Positions 364 to 11,360 of a DNA stretch of 12,000 nucleotides are shown here, one piece after another. The notes beneath the pieces are model-generated. The model was given only the letters and a program-made list of their open reading frames with translations. It had not been told where the DNA came from and did no database searches. Source of the stretch: a virus (lineage: Duplodnaviria > Heunggongvirae > Uroviricota > Caudoviricetes). Every line of letters begins with the position of its first letter. The first letter of the stretch is position 1. The translations under genes were made by a program, and so were the position numbers. Location: the IMG/VR virus record IMGVR_UViG_2660238061_000007. One strand, 5' to 3'.

Positions 364-699
364 ATTATTTATAAGATGAGCGGCATCCGTCATAAAGCTG
401 GTGGATGCTTTTTCTATGCATATATGCACAGTTTTAGTGGGCGTTAATGTCGATATAGGGATCCCCATATCGAGATTGGATACCTGGCTTTTTTCCGGTT
501 AACCTTTAATCAGGCTGGTGGGCTTTACCTGTTTTGTATGAGTGGTCATCATGACCATGTCATAACAAAAACCCCATATTCGTGGTTTTTCTGTGTCGGG
601 CTATTCTGTCGTTGCTGTGCTGATTTGGCTGGTGGGCTGAATCATCATTACGGCGATGCAGCTATGTAGACGTTCCGGCCTCCTCAAATTGAGGATTGT

Positions 700-830
700 G
701 GAAGAATCAATGGGTTAGTCTTACTTTCCCGACATCCCCCAATGGGGGTTTTCGAAACAATCAATAGCTTAGGCTTACTTCCCCGATTTCCTGCATTGCA
801 GGTTTTCGAAATAATCAATGGGTTAGGCCA
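700..830. repeat. About 2.5 copies of a ~54-bp tandem repeat, each copy containing a short GC-stem palindrome
   Basis: Unit GGTTTTCGAAA(C/T)AATCAAT(A/G)G(C/G)TTAGGC at 746-774 and 800-828, partial copy at 700-719; spacers TTACTT(T)CCCGA... are also related; palindromes CCCCCAATGGGGG (735-747), CCTGCATTGCAGG (789-801), GTGCAATTTTGCAC (835-848). Confidence 0.7.
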
Positions 831-1076
831 TCGTGCAATTTTGCACTTTGCCAGCCAGCGCAATGTCGCGTTATCAGTCCTCAGATGTGAGGGATGTAGC
901 CAGCTTTTCCCCCAGTGGGGGATATCCAGCACCGACGGCTTAACTGTGCGTGCCAGCACAAGGTAGCCTTGAACTACTTACTGCATCCCATCTTACAGGC
1001 CGTGCCTTCCTGCTTAACTTTTTGCAATGCAACAAGTCAGCCAGCGCAATTTTGCGTTATCGGGAATATCAGCAAG

Positions 1077-1358
1077 TTACCGCCGCAATCGTTCCGGCTT
1101 CTTCCACTGGTAAGTATTTTTCGCGCTCTCCCTCCGTTGTTGAGAACGGCGACGATATGCCAGCAACTCAAGGACTCTTGTTCGTATGTTGCGCATATCC
1201 ACGCCGTTAAGCTCAATACCGTCACGGCGCATCACCTCAGCCACTACACGCACATAATTATCTGCGGTCACGCTGTCCGGCTGCGTGGCCTGTTCGTCAT
1301 GCTGCTTGCTGATTCCACAAGCACGGCGGATTAATCGCAGTATTTCGGATTCAGTCAT
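1077..1358 (-). CDS. Hypothetical small basic protein (93 aa) downstream of terS
   Basis: Protein-like composition (MTESEILRLIRRACGISKQHDEQ...), same strand and operon position as terS; competing plus-strand ORFs are low-complexity. No confident family. Confidence 0.45.
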   Translation of the reverse strand: MTESEILRLIRRACGISKQHDEQATQPDSVTADNYVRVVAEVMRRDGIELNGVDMRNIRTRVLELLAYRRRSQQRRESAKNTYQWKKPERLRR

Positions 1359-2858: not shown

Positions 2859-3905
2859 TTAGCCAATGCGAACGGTAACAAAACGATTGATGCGGGCCGG
2901 TATTGGCTGTGGTGCTGAATGTGTCTGCACATATTCAATAGCCGGATCACCAGGCACAATATAGTTTTTCGGTGCAAGTTCGGCTTTAGTCAGCCCCATT
3001 CGGATTAGCTCCGGATCCTGAATACCGCCATAGGCGACAATCCCCTGAAGAGCCGTATTGCCAAGCACCATCAAATCAGGATCAAGGAAATGTTTTTCTG
3101 TTCCGTCCTCGTCGGTATAACGCCCGCTGTAAACAACAATCGCAACATCGCCCATATACCCTTTAAAACTCACCGAATCACCAAGGTCTTTAAGGGCCGT
3201 TTCCAGTTCGGAATTAGAACCACGACGGGTATCCAAAGCCTCTTTTATCGCTCTGAATGAACGGTATTTCTTCCATACATTACCACCCATAATGATGATA
3301 TTAGTGACGCCCTCACTAAATTCTGCGTAGCTCTCAATATCATCATTTGGATCAAAAGTTTCTTTATCCTTACCTGACCACTCAGTACCGCCAGACTGAG
3401 TGATGATATTTTGTGGTTTTATATTCCAGTCCAGCTCATAACGTTCAATACCATCGCCCTCAATGATATTTTTCCCCGTTGTGATTGCCTGAACAGCAAG
3501 CCATTCAATACGTGCACGAATAGCTTTAGCCTGATTTACAATCGCCTGTTTAACTTTAATATTACGTGCCCCAAAAGCATTGTATTGCTCAGGTGATACA
3601 CCAGCAGGGCGCACAGCTAACTTATTTGGATCAATGCTGCTTTTCGGCTTCATATAGCCTGGACGAATTGTTTTTGATTCGTACCCTTCGTCACGTGAAA
3701 CTTTACTACCCACCATAGGAGAACAAAACGCTGCAATTGGGATATTTGGATCGTCGATTGTATCAAGAATAATATCGCGCGATTCAAACATTACCGAGCG
3801 AGTAAAAAACAAACTGGTAAACAACGCATTTAGTTGTTTTTGTACATCTACAGCATTAACCACCTGTACAAGCTGAGTAGGCGAATATAAATCAACCATA
3901 CGCAT
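2859..3905 (-). CDS. Major capsid protein, lambda gpE-like
   Basis: Strong similarity by eye to lambda E: NIITQSGGTEWSGKDKETFDPNDDIESYA versus NITQSGGTEWSKRDKSTYDPTDDIEAYA; DTRRGSNSELETALKDLG and GDVAIVVYSG and MVLGNT conserved. Start set at the internal Met (MRMVDLYSPTQL, like lambda MSMYTTAQLL) with SD AAGAGG; the ORF-track extension to 4112 is judged non-coding. Alternative start 3899. Confidence 0.9.
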   Translation of the reverse strand: MRMVDLYSPTQLVQVVNAVDVQKQLNALFTSLFFTRSVMFESRDIILDTIDDPNIPIAAFCSPMVGSKVSRDEGYESKTIRPGYMKPKSSIDPNKLAVRPAGVSPEQYNAFGARNIKVKQAIVNQAKAIRARIEWLAVQAITTGKNIIEGDGIERYELDWNIKPQNIITQSGGTEWSGKDKETFDPNDDIESYAEFSEGVTNIIIMGGNVWKKYRSFRAIKEALDTRRGSNSELETALKDLGDSVSFKGYMGDVAIVVYSGRYTDEDGTEKHFLDPDLMVLGNTALQGIVAYGGIQDPELIRMGLTKAELAPKNYIVPGDPAIEYVQTHSAPQPIPARINRFVTVRIG

Positions 3906-4073
3906 CCTCTTTGCATTCATTAAAAATAATTGTGGATATATGCTACCACCGATATTTGTCATGCGAACACATGCAACCGAGTGCAATGTTGTATAAAGTT
4001 TTGGGGTGACAACTTCAGTGCGGACAATTAGTGTTAATATCTTCACTCCCTTTGGTCGGGATTTATGTAGCAT

Positions 4074-4107
4074 GCCGGAAAATTTATTTTTTCCGGCCTT
4101 TTTTATT
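4074..4107. terminator. Hairpin with T-run (intrinsic-terminator-like) between ssb and the capsid gene
   Basis: GCCGGAAAA (4074-4082), loop TTTATT, TTTTCCGGC (4089-4097), followed by CTTTTTTATT on the plus strand; the minus-strand reading lacks a U-run, so the strand of action is uncertain. Confidence 0.4.
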
Positions 4108-4115
4108 GGCAATAT

Positions 4116-4565
4116 TTAAAACGGGATATCATCTCCCCATTGCTCATTATCTCCCACTGGTGGCTGGCTTCCTTGCTGATCTGCCTGTTGTTTTGCTCTG
4201 TTCAGTTCGTCAGTAGCCTGCCCCTGTTGGCCTTTTTTGCCGCCCGGTCGCGCCGTTCGCGCACTGATTACGCTGTCTGCGATAACCTGCCAGCCCCGCC
4301 GCGTTTCGCCGTTCTGGCCTGTCCACTGGCTTACCTGCATGTTACCCGCCACGCTCACCAGTTCGCCTTTGTGGTGTTTTGCCAGTGCGTCGGCCTGTCT
4401 GCCAAACGCCAGGACGGATAACCACATCGTCGCCGTTCCGTCATCTGCCTGGCTGCACGGCAGGGGAACCGCCATACTCGCCATCGCCATTTGTGTCCCT
4501 TTGCTGGTGGTCTTTAACTGCGGGTCAGCCACCAGCCGCCCGTAAGCCGCTATCTGTGCTGTCAT
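4116..4565 (-). CDS. ssb: Single-stranded DNA-binding protein (SSB)
   Basis: C-terminal acidic tip ...WGDDIPF as in E. coli SSB (DDDIPF); OB-fold region resembles SSB; Gly/Gln-rich linker. Start overlaps the upstream ORF stop (ATGA). Confidence 0.85.
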   Translation of the reverse strand: MTAQIAAYGRLVADPQLKTTSKGTQMAMASMAVPLPCSQADDGTATMWLSVLAFGRQADALAKHHKGELVSVAGNMQVSQWTGQNGETRRGWQVIADSVISARTARPGGKKGQQGQATDELNRAKQQADQQGSQPPVGDNEQWGDDIPF

Positions 4566-4876: not shown

Positions 4877-4925
4877 TTATTTTCACCCCCCCCTCGTTTA
4901 AAAAGTTTTTAGTTGTGCCTCCCCC

Positions 4926-5145
4926 CCTCTACCCATCTACCCGAATGCTCATCATGTCAGTAATGGCGCGGCTTTCAGCGGGTAGATAGCTTTTTGACTC
5001 CTCTACCTGCCGTCTACCCTGCTACCTGAAACTGATAAAATCAGGTAGAAGAGGTAGAGAGCTTTTATTAGCCTTCTACCTAGCCCTATACCCACTTATC
5101 ATGTTGAATAATATGCGTTTATTTTGTTCAGGTAGATGGGGTAGA
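4926..5145. repeat. ori: Iteron-type replication origin (about 11 copies of GGTAGA/TCTACC, often in tandem pairs)
   Basis: ctctacccatctaccc (4926-4942), ggtagata (4981), ctctacctgccgtctaccc (5001-5019), ggtagaagaggtagaga (5043-5059), ttctacct (5076), ggtagatggggtagatgg (5132-5149); flanked by AT-rich and poly-C tracts; immediately 3' of the primase gene. Confidence 0.7.
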
Positions 5146-5161
5146 TGGCTTTTACAAAAAA

Positions 5162-6916
5162 TTATAAAAACGCGTCGCAATCGTCTGTTGTAATTGCGTT
5201 GGTCTGCGTTACTCCCTTAACTTTTCGCGTAATATATTCATGCCCGTAAACTTTCGCCGCTGGCTTCATGGCCTTGCTGAACTCAGCCACGTTTAGCGGT
5301 TTGCTCCTGCCCGCGTATGCCATAAACGCCAGATAGACGCGGTAAAGGCTGTTCCTGGTCGTGTACTTCACTGAATCACCACCGCCACCCATCATCAGGC
5401 CGCGCGCTTCCTCCAGAAAATTCAGGAACTGGCAAAACTCAATAACCGGATCCGTCTGTTGCTTTATTGCCAGTGCTTCATCACCGTCACGCTGTTCCAG
5501 TAGTAAAGCCCGTGCCTTCTCAGGGTCGGTAAAGTTCGCCAGCAATCGGCGGATAATAACGGGGATTTCAGCCGCAATCTTTTCCGGTAGCTCCCTGTCT
5601 TTTTCGGCCTCACTGACGATATTGTCGAAACGGAAAATCACGCGACGACGTGCCACACCTCCGGCCCGTTCGGTGAATATCATCGGGTTGTTGTTGGTCG
5701 CCAGCACCACCGCCCTGATTACCGCCGTGAAACGCTTTTCATATTTCGGGTTAATTTCCACGGGGTCGCCGCCTGTGATTTTCTTGATGCCCGTTCCTTC
5801 GCCTGTATATTTCGGCTGGTCAGCCAGGACGATAAGACGACTCCCGACAACCTGCGCACGTCCACCAGCATCATCAAGCGATGTCATTTCAGCGCTTACC
5901 GTGTTCTGTTTCCCTGCCAGAAGGCTGGCTATGTGTGTGAATGTACTTTTACCGCTCCCGCCGTCTCCGGTGGCCTCAATAAACATCTGCCAGTCGTACC
6001 GGTTCGCCATAATCATGTACAGCGCGGCACATATACGCATCATCTTGCGCGGGTCTTTTCCGGCTGCGTGCTCAAGCCATTTATGAAAGTTTGGCGCGTT
6101 ATCGCGGATGTTCTCCCCTGGTGCTGGTGGCGTGTACTCAATGCCGTTGTGCGTGGTGATCCAGTTCTCCGGCGTGTGCGGGGAAAATTCCCCCGTTTTC
6201 AGGTCAAGCGCACCATTGGCGAACGGCAGCAAATCGCCAGACGGCTCGCCCATTGGTTCGGCAATAACTTTTAACGCTTCCACGGCGTTATTGATTACGC
6301 GCTTGCTGAAAGTGGCCCTGTGCTCTGAATAGATCGCCACCATTTCGCGGCTAAGTTCCATTGTGCTGACCGGACACCATACCCCGCCGCGCCATACGTG
6401 AACGATTTCACTTTCAGGATGTACGCAAACGCCATCAAAGCGATCGGCAAGCAACTGCGCGCGCTCACTGTCCGCCATCTGCGAAAGTTGCGCCTTTTGC
6501 TTTACCGGAAGCTCAATGACCAGACCATCAGAAAGATTCTGGCGTTCACGGGCCAGATATTCGCGCCAGTTCTGCACCTCCTGGCCGTGCATACCCTCAG
6601 GATAAAAATTTGCATCCTGTACGCCTGCTGCCGCCAGCTTCTGACCAATCGCCTTTATCATTACAGGCGCAAGATATCCGGCCCTGTATATGCGTGCTGA
6701 TTTTCGGCCTTCCGGCACAATTTGCAGATTATCCAGTTCGGATAGCTGCTGCTCCCCAAGCCACACAGGAGGCTCATTATCTCCGGCCATACGCGCATCA
6801 TGTTCCTGCCATTGTTTCGCGTGTGCCCAGGCATCACTACCCGCAAAAATAATGACTTCTGTTCCTTTGTGTTTTATGCCGCGTGACTGCTGTTTTACGT
6901 TCGGTGCCAGTTTCAT
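5162..6916 (-). CDS. P4-family primase/helicase (SF3 helicase-like P-loop NTPase), replication initiator
   Basis: 584-aa ORF with Walker A GDGGSGKST and a D5/P4 primase C-terminal-like region; SD GAGGT 6 nt upstream; followed by the iteron ori, the typical pri-ori layout of PICI/P4-like satellites. Confidence 0.85.
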   Translation of the reverse strand: MKLAPNVKQQSRGIKHKGTEVIIFAGSDAWAHAKQWQEHDARMAGDNEPPVWLGEQQLSELDNLQIVPEGRKSARIYRAGYLAPVMIKAIGQKLAAAGVQDANFYPEGMHGQEVQNWREYLARERQNLSDGLVIELPVKQKAQLSQMADSERAQLLADRFDGVCVHPESEIVHVWRGGVWCPVSTMELSREMVAIYSEHRATFSKRVINNAVEALKVIAEPMGEPSGDLLPFANGALDLKTGEFSPHTPENWITTHNGIEYTPPAPGENIRDNAPNFHKWLEHAAGKDPRKMMRICAALYMIMANRYDWQMFIEATGDGGSGKSTFTHIASLLAGKQNTVSAEMTSLDDAGGRAQVVGSRLIVLADQPKYTGEGTGIKKITGGDPVEINPKYEKRFTAVIRAVVLATNNNPMIFTERAGGVARRRVIFRFDNIVSEAEKDRELPEKIAAEIPVIIRRLLANFTDPEKARALLLEQRDGDEALAIKQQTDPVIEFCQFLNFLEEARGLMMGGGGDSVKYTTRNSLYRVYLAFMAYAGRSKPLNVAEFSKAMKPAAKVYGHEYITRKVKGVTQTNAITTDDCDAFL

Positions 6917-8847: not shown

Positions 8848-9426
8848 TCACTGAATGCGGTTACCAAAGTAAAACTCAGGCTGATATTCACGTATCAGCG
8901 TTTTTTCTTCTTCCTCCAGCTCACGCTTTTTGCGCTTACATGCCTGTAGCTCCCTCCCCTTCTCGCTGGCACTTATTTGATATTGCTCTTTACGGCGGGA
9001 AAAATCCTGTAATGCACCCCACGGGATACCATAAGTCCCCGTTTTTCTGATACCTGGTATCACATTTCTGAATACCCAGTTACTGAAACGATGAGCAAAT
9101 GTGCCAGGCGTCGTTGCTTTGCGGCTGCGGGCTATTAGTTTGTAGAAACCTGACTCAGAGATAATTCTCATATTCTGATTTCCTCCTGGGGTGTAAGTTA
9201 AATTTACTCCCTTTTCATCATCATCAAGCATCTGCAACGCCGTACGCGAATTGGTTAGTTCCAGCGCAGCACAAACATCTTTTGCAACAAACCACGGATC
9301 GCCGTTCAGATACACCACACGAACGTTCACACTATCAAAGCGCAGAACGACGAGATCACGAATATCGCAGAATTTTTTCACTGGACGAGCGTACCCCTTG
9401 CCCGTCACGGCAATATTTTTATTCAT
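8848..9426 (-). CDS. Bro-N domain protein (putative antirepressor-like)
   Basis: Bro-N hallmark segments VRVVYLNGDPWFVAKDVCAALEL, GGNQNMRIISESGFYKLIARSRK and FSNWVFRNVIPGIRKTGTY. Confidence 0.8.
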   Translation of the reverse strand: MNKNIAVTGKGYARPVKKFCDIRDLVVLRFDSVNVRVVYLNGDPWFVAKDVCAALELTNSRTALQMLDDDEKGVNLTYTPGGNQNMRIISESGFYKLIARSRKATTPGTFAHRFSNWVFRNVIPGIRKTGTYGIPWGALQDFSRRKEQYQISASEKGRELQACKRKKRELEEEEKTLIREYQPEFYFGNRIQ

Positions 9427-9482: not shown

Positions 9483-9740
9483 TTATTGCTGTTTTGTTTT
9501 TCCAGGTTTCCATCCAGGATGCCACTCACCACGGATCCATGCCTGAACCTCTGAAAGTCGATACCCTGCAGCACGTTCACCGATCTTGATACGTCGCGGG
9601 AATTTACCTGCCTGCTCCATTTTCCAGCGTGTTGAGTTTGCCAGCGTGGTAAGTGCTATGCACTCTTTTTCACGAATGAACCGATCAATGTCCTTCATTG
9701 TGCGCAAATCGTTTTCATCAACAAGAGAATAAATTGCCAT
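9483..9740 (-). CDS. alpA: AlpA-family transcriptional regulator/excisionase-like HTH protein
   Basis: 85-aa protein with AlpA-type HTH (ALTTLANSTRWKMEQAGKFPRRIKIGERAAGYRLSEVQAWI); start 1 nt after the integrase stop, the typical int-alpA pairing of P4-like/PICI elements. Confidence 0.8.
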   Translation of the reverse strand: MAIYSLVDENDLRTMKDIDRFIREKECIALTTLANSTRWKMEQAGKFPRRIKIGERAAGYRLSEVQAWIRGEWHPGWKPGKTKQQ

Positions 9741-9741
9741 A

Positions 9742-10983
9742 TCACACCACCTCTTTATTAAGCTCGATAACGTTGTTGTTAAATCCTGCTATCGTATTAA
9801 GGTAATTAACCCACATATTAAGCACCTCAAGTTTTTTCTTTATATGCCTGCTTTTATTGTAAACACCAGCAACCCCTTTCACTTTATGACCTAAAAGAAG
9901 TTCGACAATATAAGGATCCGCCCCCATATCATTAAGCGTAGTGGAAAATGTGCGCCTGAAATCATGTATGCACCACAAGCCATTAGTATCATGACCAAGA
10001 CGCCTGCATATTCTGTTTGCAGCCCCTGTTATTGTCGCCCTTTGCAAAGCACAACCGACAACATAACCGCGATTTTTTGTTTCTGCGTAAAGATTAACGA
10101 TCCATTGTTTTATTCCGTCAGGAACAGGCCTTACTATAGCCTCCTTGTTTTTGCTGTGCTCTTTTGGGACTGTCCATACCCAGTTTTTTAAATCCCATTC
10201 GTCCCAGGTGGATAGCCTCGCCTCCTGCTGTCGGCAACCAAACACCAGGCAGATAACCATTATTCTTCGGTTATATATTGATGACAGAGTTAGCAAATTA
10301 TTACCGTAAGCATAAGACCATACATCAGCGGTTTCATTGATATTAAGAACGCGATCCCTTATACCGGATGAGCGCCCGACATAACTTACGTTAATATCTC
10401 CAAAGGGATCGCACGCGATGTATTGCCTGACGCGACAAAAACGCAACGCCTGTTTGATATCAAGAAAAATTGCACCAGACATAACAGGCGCATTTTTTTT
10501 GATCCTGTCAAAGACGGTAAGCCATGTGTGTAATTTGCACTGTTCTATAGCCATATCACCGATATAGGGGAAGATATGCTTTTCAAATCGTTTTATTAAA
10601 TATTCATGCTCTTTTCTGGCTGTTGTGGCGTGATTGTCGTACCAGTAAAACAGCGCATCCCTTACGGTCACTGGTTGCATAGTTTTTTCGGCAGCAAGTT
10701 TTATTTGCCTGCGGGGGTCCAGATTTTCAGCCAGCCATTCACGGCACTGATCACGCATGCGCCTGGCCGTTGCAAGAGACATGTCAGGATAGCGACCAAG
10801 TGTAAGCCATACCGGAGGGGATTCCCTGCCACCAAGACGATAGTAAAAAACAAAGCTGATCCCCCCAACCATGCTTACACGCACAGACAACCCGCGCCCA
10901 TCCGCTATTGTTTTTTGTTTGTCCTGCCGTTTTCCGACAAGACTCTTTAACAGTTTGTCACTGAGTTTGTTTTCAATAGCCAT
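9742..10983 (-). CDS. int: P4-type tyrosine integrase
   Basis: 413 aa; P4-family N-terminus (DKLLKSLVGKRQDKQKTIADGRGLSVRV...LGRYPDMSLATARRMRD) and catalytic-region motifs (HDFRRTF, LLGHK, Y near C-terminus); SD GAGGG upstream. Confidence 0.95.
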   Translation of the reverse strand: MAIENKLSDKLLKSLVGKRQDKQKTIADGRGLSVRVSMVGGISFVFYYRLGGRESPPVWLTLGRYPDMSLATARRMRDQCREWLAENLDPRRQIKLAAEKTMQPVTVRDALFYWYDNHATTARKEHEYLIKRFEKHIFPYIGDMAIEQCKLHTWLTVFDRIKKNAPVMSGAIFLDIKQALRFCRVRQYIACDPFGDINVSYVGRSSGIRDRVLNINETADVWSYAYGNNLLTLSSIYNRRIMVICLVFGCRQQEARLSTWDEWDLKNWVWTVPKEHSKNKEAIVRPVPDGIKQWIVNLYAETKNRGYVVGCALQRATITGAANRICRRLGHDTNGLWCIHDFRRTFSTTLNDMGADPYIVELLLGHKVKGVAGVYNKSRHIKKKLEVLNMWVNYLNTIAGFNNNVIELNKEVV

Positions 10984-11003
10984 TAAAAGCCCTCAAGAGA
11001 TTT

Positions 11004-11056
11004 GCAATACACACCCATCCCGATCGCCAATTTGCAATACACATTGCAATACACAA
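11004..11056. repeat. Three copies of TTGCAATACACA beside the int promoter (candidate integrase arm-type or att-associated sites, right island end)
   Basis: gatttgcaatacacacc (11004-11020) and gcaatacacattgcaatacac (11035-11055), co-oriented with the copies at 343-363. Confidence 0.5.
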
Positions 11057-11255: not shown

Positions 11256-11309
11256 ATTGTAATGACAACGTTTCGCGGCTATTCTTGTATTGTTTGGATG
11301 CAAGAATGG

Positions 11310-11360
11310 CCCCCGTGGTGTTGTCAGGTGCATACCTGCAACGTGCGGGGGTTTTCTCTC
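11310..11360 (+). terminator. GC-rich stem-loop followed by a T-run (terminator-like)
   Basis: CCCCCG...CAGGT GCAT ACCTG...CGGGGG followed by TTTTCTCTC. Confidence 0.4.

Follow-up and report, generated by a model that had tools for sequence, protein, structure and literature searches.

The roi gene of lambdoid phages encodes a DNA-binding protein of the Rha/KilAC type. In phage HK022, the Roi protein combines a Phage_pRha N-domain with a KilAC C-domain. It reportedly binds DNA at a site within its own gene that adjoins an IHF site, and this binding is said to be stabilized by IHF. Roi is also said to block lytic growth in IHF mutants. A passage in PMC4936722 cites the Rha proteins of phi80 and P22 as inhibiting phage growth in IHF mutants, and roi was found to be dispensable in some Stx2a phages (PMC4587872).

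Here we analyzed a window of 12,000 nucleotides, which represents a Gram-negative-type phage-inducible chromosomal island from E. coli with transcription from the minus strand. Near one end of the island, we found a tandem array of three units (675-836, plus strand) that resembles the intragenic site of HK022. In both cases a palindrome is followed by an IHF core in the identical orientation, and unit 3 of the array has the HK022-type core CTGCATTGCAG. The IHF core lies 11 nt past the palindrome in HK022 and 10 nt past it here. Unlike the HK022 site, the array is non-coding and located outside any roi/rha open reading frame, contains one copy for each of three classes, and is carried by a satellite that does not encode a Rha-domain protein.

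Other described systems share parts of this arrangement. The lambdoid cosB (R3-I1-R2-R1, bound by TerS) and the attP arms also join sites for specific proteins to IHF bends, and like the array they are located in the packaging and att-proximal part of the element. However, the palindromes of the array do not resemble the R sites of TerS, and the candidate att-arm motif of the island, GCAATACACA, is different. The E. coli datA locus (DnaA boxes plus IHF) and the P1 incA iterons are clusters of high-affinity regulator sites that, like the array, lie outside a promoter context, and the titration sites of datA work jointly with IHF. Whereas datA and incA titrate the initiator of their own element, the presumed ligand of the array is encoded by the helper, and several specificities are combined. 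Recognition of a helper regulatory protein by a satellite, diversified over helpers, is known from the late promoters of P4, which respond to P2 Ogr, and from the Stl repressors of SaPIs. Unlike in P4 and SaPIs, recognition here would operate through DNA sites copied from a helper gene rather than through a satellite promoter with a known output or a satellite protein. We found no description of the array in the papers searched on these islands, their packaging, and Roi. The module itself appears to be a known phage site, and the new part would be its occurrence as a gene-less, multi-allele tandem array on a satellite.

Architecture of the array and its place in the island

The minus-strand genes of the island include those encoding an integrase (9742-10983), AlpA (9483-9740), a Bro-N protein (8848-9426), a D5-type primase (5162-6916), SSB (4116-4565), homologues of the lambda capsid proteins E and D (2859-4112 and 2508-2849), a second AlpA-like protein (2113-2496), a Nu1-like small-terminase/Rpp-type protein (1441-1923), and a 93-aa protein with no assigned function (1077-1358). 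A lambda-type cosN, AGGTCGCCGCCC, was read from the sequence at 2045-2056, and doublets of the candidate att-arm motif are located at 343-362 and 11003-11055. An island in NZ_CP031134 is near-identical to the window over the first ~4.8 kb and differs in its replication and early genes. That island splits the portal gene of a lambdoid prophage, which corresponds to the helper-embedded configuration described by Tommasini et al. 2023 (PMC10111431). Since the portal fragment ends at 270, positions 270-1077 form an unannotated stretch of ~800 bp at the distal island end, and the array is located within it. RefSeq annotates nothing from 270 to 1077 in an identical copy, which agrees with the statement of the initial annotation that no annotated gene explains the array. 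The prophage of NZ_CP031134 that hosts the island with the identical distal end has lost roi. A megablast search of 600-1100 against complete E. coli genomes detected the region at full length in 54 genomes and in part in 912.

The array had been described as about 2.5 tandem copies of a 54-bp unit, each carrying a different palindrome. Tandem Repeats Finder called a period of 54 bp at 705-828 (2.3 copies, 80% matches), and a repeat search widened the array to three copies in register, at 675-728, 729-782, and 783-836. The array itself was thus recovered, and the count was corrected to three full units. The three-unit array is delimited by these repeat calls and by homology to roi codons ~40-57, and its plus strand has the coding-strand orientation of phage roi. 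Each unit is composed of CCGR-NN-T, a 13-bp palindrome, a 10-nt spacer, an IHF core, and TTAGGC-TTACTT. The palindromes are indeed distinct and are perfect 6+1+6 DNA palindromes of 13 bp, namely CCTCAAATTGAGG in unit 1 (682-694), CCCCCAATGGGGG in unit 2 (736-748), and CCTGCATTGCAGG in unit 3 (790-802). They differ through compensatory changes at three stem positions. If they formed hairpins, these would have a 5-bp stem and a 3-nt loop. Closure to one central base suits a DNA site bound by a dimer and goes beyond what an RNA hairpin can use.

A perfect IHF core, WATCARNNNNTTR, which had not been mentioned in the initial annotation, was found exactly 10 nt 3' of the palindrome in every unit. 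The cores, all on the plus strand, read AATCAATGGGTTA in unit 1 (705-717) and unit 3 (813-825) and AATCAATAGCTTA in unit 2 (759-771), those of units 2 and 3 likewise matching the consensus. Four IHF cores are located on one strand within 375 bp, where 1.1 would be expected on the two strands of the entire 12 kb. The units as a whole are 65-72% alike, repeat/spacer alternation is absent, and the open reading frames include no cas genes, so the earlier view that this is not a CRISPR array held.

Further related elements were found beside the array. An even palindrome, GTGCAATTTTGCAC, at 833-846 shares the core GCAATTTTGC with a palindrome at 1045-1056, from which its outer pair differs by a compensatory change, and it is not followed by an IHF core. 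The repeated CAGCCAGCGCAAT..GCGTTATC motif reported earlier occurs at 852-875 and again at 1038-1061, the two copies being 92% identical over 24 nt. The second of these copies overlaps a fourth module (1045-1079, plus strand), which consists of the palindrome CGCAATTTTGCG (1045-1056), 10 nt, and the IHF core TATCAGCAAGTTA (1067-1079); this core overlaps the stop codon of the minus-strand 93-aa gene. The copy at 852-875 (plus strand) is decayed, with a broken palindrome (GCAATGTCGC) and a truncated spacer and IHF core. The palindrome CCCCCAGTGGGGG sits at 909-921, where it had been noted as a fourth palindrome. In the repeat search it was found to belong to an inverted copy of the unit 2 palindrome and its 5' flank (TCCCCCAGTGGGGGATATC, 908-926, minus strand), and it is the only palindrome of these classes without an IHF core (the single exception among 19). 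BLAST searches against phages identified no counterpart for the fourth module or for other modules of the GCAATTTTGC type, and those with 826-1090 and 270-700 gave no informative match.

Similarity of the units to phage roi genes

By sequence comparison, each unit corresponds to one ~50-nt internal segment (codons ~40-57) of a different roi allele class. Unit 1 was found to be 96% identical over 50 nt to an internal part of a gene annotated as 'phage antirepressor KilAC domain' that is located in the nin region of an E2348/69 prophage. Unit 2 was 90.6% identical over 53 nt to roi, over the same codons, in VT2-Sakai, HK629, and numerous Stx phages. It deviates from HK629 toward a more perfect palindrome, the roi palindrome of HK629 being imperfect (CCCCCAATGGTGG) and its unit 2 counterpart perfect. 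The palindrome of unit 3 was found in a third roi allele class (class C) among 80 IMG/VR roi loci. Over the palindrome and spacer, unit 1 matched the class A allele of E2348/69 at 24 of 24 positions, unit 2 matched the class B allele of HK629 at 22 of 24, and unit 3 matched class C (L057) at 23 of 24, whereas a unit matched its neighboring unit at only 14-18 of 24. Identities over 50 nt to the corresponding phage class were 47, 43, and 39 for units 1, 2, and 3, compared with 32-37 between units. At the four unconstrained positions of the IHF core, unit 3 reads TGGG, like unit 1, while its phage allele reads TAAC.

We then searched the window for other parts of Roi. Three Roi N-domains used as tblastn queries matched the window at residues 42-57/67 alone, which are the units themselves, and Pfam detected the Rha domain in none of the island open reading frames. 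The array is therefore not a decayed roi gene. A roi pseudogene was rejected because the array represents residues 42-57/67 of Roi three times over and no other part of the gene. Instead, the same short stretch of roi is present in three versions, each derived from a different allele and each oriented like the roi coding strand. Since the units are copies from different roi variants, the island probably carries binding sites for the regulators of its helpers.

To characterize the module within phages, we analyzed its occurrence in phage genomes and roi alleles. In the 7 kb of HK022 from P to the lysis genes, the sole perfect IHF core is located inside roi, 11 nt past the palindrome CTGCATTGCAG, which occupies HK022 positions 34785-34795. 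This sequence occurs once in HK022 positions 1-38000 (of 40.7 kb), inside roi, and the class B palindrome likewise occurs once in the complete HK629 genome, inside roi. Its being unique to roi in the two genomes checked suggests that the site is probably autoregulatory. The palindrome is located at codons ~43-47 of phage roi. In a DNA-level check of 13 roi/rha alleles, it was centered at the same codon position in 11, and an IHF core followed 10-11 nt past it in 10. In the phage gene, the IHF core could simply result from conservation of the peptide I-N-x-L.

We collected and aligned 120 Rha/Roi N-domains and found that the identity of the four residues that the palindrome encodes follows that of the residues in the second HTH helix. 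The helix KRTIETL occurs with PQIE at the start of the wing and with CCTCAA.TTGAGG, as in unit 1. KQSIERL occurs with PPMG or PPMV and CCCCCA.TGGGGG, matching unit 2, and K[IV]SIERL with PALQ or PAMQ and CCTGCA.TGCAGG, where the alleles with KISIERL and PALQ have the palindrome of unit 3. A fourth helix, KRSIERL, occurs with P[AP][ML]A and GCCA.TGGC. The pairing of helix and palindrome was kept even in mosaics with an exchanged downstream wing, and the palindrome was centered at the same position in six further alleles for which DNA was retrieved. For PPLV, the palindrome CCACCA.TGGTGG was predicted from protein alone, and the DNA then showed CCACCATTGGTGG.

An AlphaFold model of the N-domain (pLDDT >90 for residues 10-100) contains a strand, helices at 14-21 and 25-37, and a beta-hairpin at 45-67. 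This layout is predicted to be winged-helix-like, with the variable residues on helix 25-37, the predicted recognition helix. Winged-helix proteins were the best matches of a Rha N-domain model in a Foldseek search of the PDB, none of them significant (best E = 0.055). The palindrome is the best candidate for an allele-specific Roi operator.

Conservation of the modules in related islands

The search was expanded to 80 IMG/VR loci containing the 93-aa gene, which yielded 43 distinct distal regions. A palindrome of >=5 bp was found 6-12 nt upstream of 68 of the 86 IHF cores in the plus orientation and of none of the 16 on the other strand. Because finding modules by way of the IHF core would be circular, palindromes were also searched first; a perfect IHF core was then located exactly 10 nt downstream in 18 of 19 distinct occurrences, against a background of 0.0017 per position. 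The sets of modules vary among islands and include A-B-C-G (this island), B alone, A plus G, and H-A-E-B, among others. Across the islands, at least 8 palindrome types were observed, and some islands have no module. Similar modules, in part with other palindromes, are present in islands adjoining clpS.

In a set of 26 distinct island and phage modules, pairing holds for 95.5% of palindrome cells, and 5 of the 6 pairs have changed on both sides. The covariation score of the palindromes was matched by 0 of 500 shuffles, the island rows having been pre-selected for >=4/6 pairs. The island modules are non-coding and reading frames are not kept; the spacer and the four free IHF positions vary, and the consensus positions are intact. 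The intact IHF consensus in non-coding island DNA points to selection at the DNA level. When six other island module types were searched by BLAST against phages, only the TTCGCCGCTGGCGAA module had a relative, a weak one (81%), within a Rha-domain 'DNA-binding protein' adjoining cro in Stx2 phages. In a thin sample of five genomes, the module class of the island was the same as the roi class of the co-resident prophage in one.

Possible roles of the array

We consider it reasonably probable that the array comprises cis-acting modules for protein binding that were captured from the roi genes of helper phages, with a multi-specificity decoy for Roi and IHF as the likeliest role. Each phage roi allele would contain its own 13-bp palindromic site within codons ~40-57 and an IHF site 10-11 nt on, and a Roi dimer would bind the palindrome, aided by the bend that IHF induces. 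The island would have retained the module alone, one for each of three specificity classes, together with a fourth module without an assigned partner and a bare palindrome. During the lytic cycle of a helper, island DNA could then bind the Roi proteins of several kinds of lambdoid phages as well as host IHF. Titration by such a decoy on a replicating element would alter both the availability of Roi and the autoregulation of roi in the helper. A protein-binding array or decoy had been proposed in the initial annotation, and the direction of the evidence agrees as far as helper-factor sites or a decoy are concerned. It does not favor sites for TerS, as cosN is ~1 kb off and cosB is located between cosN and the Nu1-like gene, or for integrase/Xis, as the candidate att-arm motif is found elsewhere.

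Titration is the most likely consequence of binding, with a helper-dependent cis switch as a close second. Titration is favored because the modules are located outside a promoter context and vary in number and class as cargo does, and because an extra bare palindrome is present and the sites are at least as perfect as those of the phages. However, negative autoregulation buffers a protein against decoys, and the titration reading is weaker for it. The main reading is also opposed by the GCAATTTTGC-type modules, for which no phage counterpart was found, by the agreement of classes in only one of the five genomes sampled, by the loss of roi from the host prophage in NZ_CP031134, and by the non-significant Foldseek matches for a winged helix. 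More tentatively, satellites in general may keep an exchangeable operator library copied from helper regulatory genes, with one module per Roi class, in order to sense or sequester regulators. This suggestion rests on the Rha/Roi recognition helix and its own site being encoded within ~60 bp and co-evolving as a self-contained specificity cassette, which likewise appears to be undescribed so far.

The same partners, helper Roi and IHF, might instead act in cis, which we regard as the leading but less likely alternative. They could form a roadblock or insulator at the 3' end of the late operon or a helper-sensing switch, in which complexes upstream of int/alpA in the excised circle would control transcription, excision, or packaging. 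The strict orientation of the modules and their position just inside the island end suit a cis role at least as well as titration. In the 43 distinct islands, the modules have one orientation relative to the late operon (68 versus 0) and are always located between the last late gene and the island end. There is also no convincing intrinsic terminator after the 93-aa gene in the late operon, and the 54-bp spacing (~5.1 helical turns) sets the units nearly in phase. Yet a promoter-like site is absent in or beside the array, the orientation could persist via gene conversion of an existing module through the conserved flanks, and the array is ~400-560 bp from the island boundary (~270), farther than the att-arm motif at 343-362. 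Its occurrence both in islands within prophage late genes and in those adjoining clpS indicates that no single flanking context is served.

It is improbable that the array is a non-functional scar of roi fragments gained by recombination with helpers, duplicated by slippage, and left to drift. Exchange of DNA between such islands and their helpers is known (Tommasini et al. 2023, PMC10111431), and the decayed module at 852-875 and the related islands without a module would fit such a history. However, the palindrome-plus-IHF segment is the only part of roi ever present, and the three classes are in exact register with perfect palindromes, that of unit 2 more so than its HK629 counterpart. In 18 of 19 occurrences, an intact IHF core follows after 10 nt although coding constraint is absent, and at least 8 types of palindrome, differing by compensatory changes, persist in the 43 islands. 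An action at the RNA level is very unlikely. Because the units run opposite to the late operon, a transcript reading through into them would be complementary to codons ~40-57 of roi mRNA from three classes, with 90-96% identity to phage alleles over ~50 nt, and could silence roi; alternatively, the region could encode a structured RNA, as the initial annotation had considered. The region folds better than shuffles, with z = -4.67 on each strand. Such equality is expected, since any set of DNA palindromes scores equally on both strands, and the 6+1+6 closure is useless to RNA. Rfam gave no match in the region, either at gathering thresholds on the whole window or at E<=1 on 250-1150. The free IHF positions of unit 3 (TGGG versus TAAC) break complementarity and are neutral for IHF, unit 2 departs from HK629 toward the more perfect palindrome, and what the islands conserve is the palindrome, the 10-nt distance, and the IHF consensus positions, not overall complementarity.

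Less likely still is binding by proteins of the island or host, for example an architectural array for IHF only, serving compaction, packaging, or excision, with the palindromes bound by the AlpA-like or Bro-N proteins of the island. In that case, the resemblance to roi would stem from targeting of the helper's roi gene by the island. Two AlpA-like HTH proteins, the Bro-N protein, and a protein with a repressor-like C-terminus are encoded by the island, the IHF cores are the most invariant part of the modules, and the GCAATTTTGC modules are those without a phage counterpart found. One island protein cannot, however, account for at least 3 unrelated half-sites in one array, and in phages the half-sites co-vary with the recognition helix of Roi.

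A 50-bp module with three predicted allele-specific ligands provides a handle on how Gram-negative phage-inducible islands perceive or manipulate their helpers. It also provides a concrete candidate for the binding site and specificity code of the Roi/Rha proteins, whose role has been obscure ever since the Rha phenotype came to light in the 1980s. If the array is a decoy, it would represent DNA-based interference or assistance between satellite and helper, unlike the protein-based mechanisms of SaPIs, PLEs, and P4.

Several other identities of the region were tried and rejected. ToxI-like repeats of a type III toxin-antitoxin system did not fit, as there is no downstream family-matched open reading frame on either strand and no Rfam match at E<=1. 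A lambda-type cosB was rejected because the array is located ~1 kb past cosN on the side of the Nu1-like gene, beyond two genes. A scan for intrinsic terminators picked none of the palindromes, and its sole call in the array was weak and on the minus strand (833-816). Dispersed REP/BIME elements of the RIB/RIP type were rejected, as the 912 E. coli genomes that gave a match had it at a median of 1 place each; the matches examined were located within islands or roi genes. Iterons of a replication origin were rejected, as the array is 4 kb from the primase gene, beside which separate short tandem repeats are located at 4924-5148. A small protein encoded by the plus-strand open reading frame 670-966 (ATG at 742) was also rejected, as it has no Pfam match and no RefSeq annotation. 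The first ATG of this frame is located inside the class B palindrome, and the later modules of a related island, L003, are in another frame.

Palindromes in phage Rha/Roi genes and in the island

We found that, in the phage genes for the DNA-binding proteins Rha and Roi, the putative recognition helix is encoded about 60 bp or less from the palindrome (phage and prophage loci L002, L005, L057, L086, L167, and L170-L175). The helix and the palindrome co-vary across many alleles. The palindrome inside each gene is presumably the site bound by the gene's own recognition helix. Some E. coli genomes were found to carry two prophages of different roi classes. In the lambdoid prophage that hosts an island in NZ_CP031134, the usual place of roi is filled by a truncated DUF1364 gene (L169 5900-6110, corresponding to NZ_CP031134 97899-98109), and this helper therefore appears to have lost roi.

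A second family of palindromes, even in length and with a TTTT centre (GTGCAATTTTGCAC, CGCAATTTTGCG, GCGCATTTTTGCGC, and CCCATTTTTGGG), was identified in the window (833-846 and 1045-1056) and in related islands (L087-L166). These palindromes are placed relative to the IHF core as in the first family, and their outer pair is changed in a compensatory way. We searched for a phage counterpart of this family and found none. Two more short palindromes, CCTCAGATGTGAGG (879-892) and TGTGCGTGCCAGCACA (945-960), lie between the modules of palindrome and IHF core and were linked to no phage sequence.

Island ends and the adjoining non-coding block

The left edge of the window bears an IS1 terminal inverted repeat (GGTGATGCTGCCAACTTACTGATTTAGTG..., 29-89), followed by a run of N (90-99) and then a fragment of a lambdoid portal gene, from its C-terminal end (100-270). 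In NZ_CP031134, the portal gene is interrupted by the same island and is otherwise intact. Close to each island end are doubled GCAATACACA motifs (343-362 and 11003-11055), which are probably integrase-arm or AlpA sites. They are similar to the 'doubled motif' that helper-embedded islands carry at distances of 81 and 132 bp from the centre of attP (Tommasini et al. 2023, PMC10111431). Immediately beyond the island's int end, the plus strand strongly matches the Rfam family of the antitoxin RNA rdlD (11292-11357; 81.7 bits, E = 2e-16), which points to a type I toxin-antitoxin locus in the flanking DNA.

A conserved non-coding block (440-660) is located between the array of 54-bp units and the att arm, containing the palindrome GATATAGGGATCCCCATATC, CCTGGCTTTTTTCCGGTTAA, and two copies of GGCTGGTGGGCT (513-524 and 627-638). 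The block is present in duplicate in the related clpS-linked island L003 (2812-2960).

Cos site, small-terminase gene, and candidate replication origin

A lambda-type cos site was identified at 2045-2056 (region 2030-2060), where the lambda cohesive end is present in reverse complement as AGGTCGCCGCCC. After it comes a Nu1-like small-terminase/Rpp-type gene (1441-1923), which is frameshifted and truncated in the window because a T run near 1490 is 1 nt shorter than in the RefSeq homologue; the window has two ORFs (1441-1923 and 1370-1615), whereas the homologue has a single 543-nt CDS. Another 1-nt difference was found near 4087. Three short tandem repeats, CCCATCTA, TAGCCCTATACC, and GGTAGATGG, occupy the gap adjoining the primase gene (4924-5148) and are likely to represent a replication origin with iterons.
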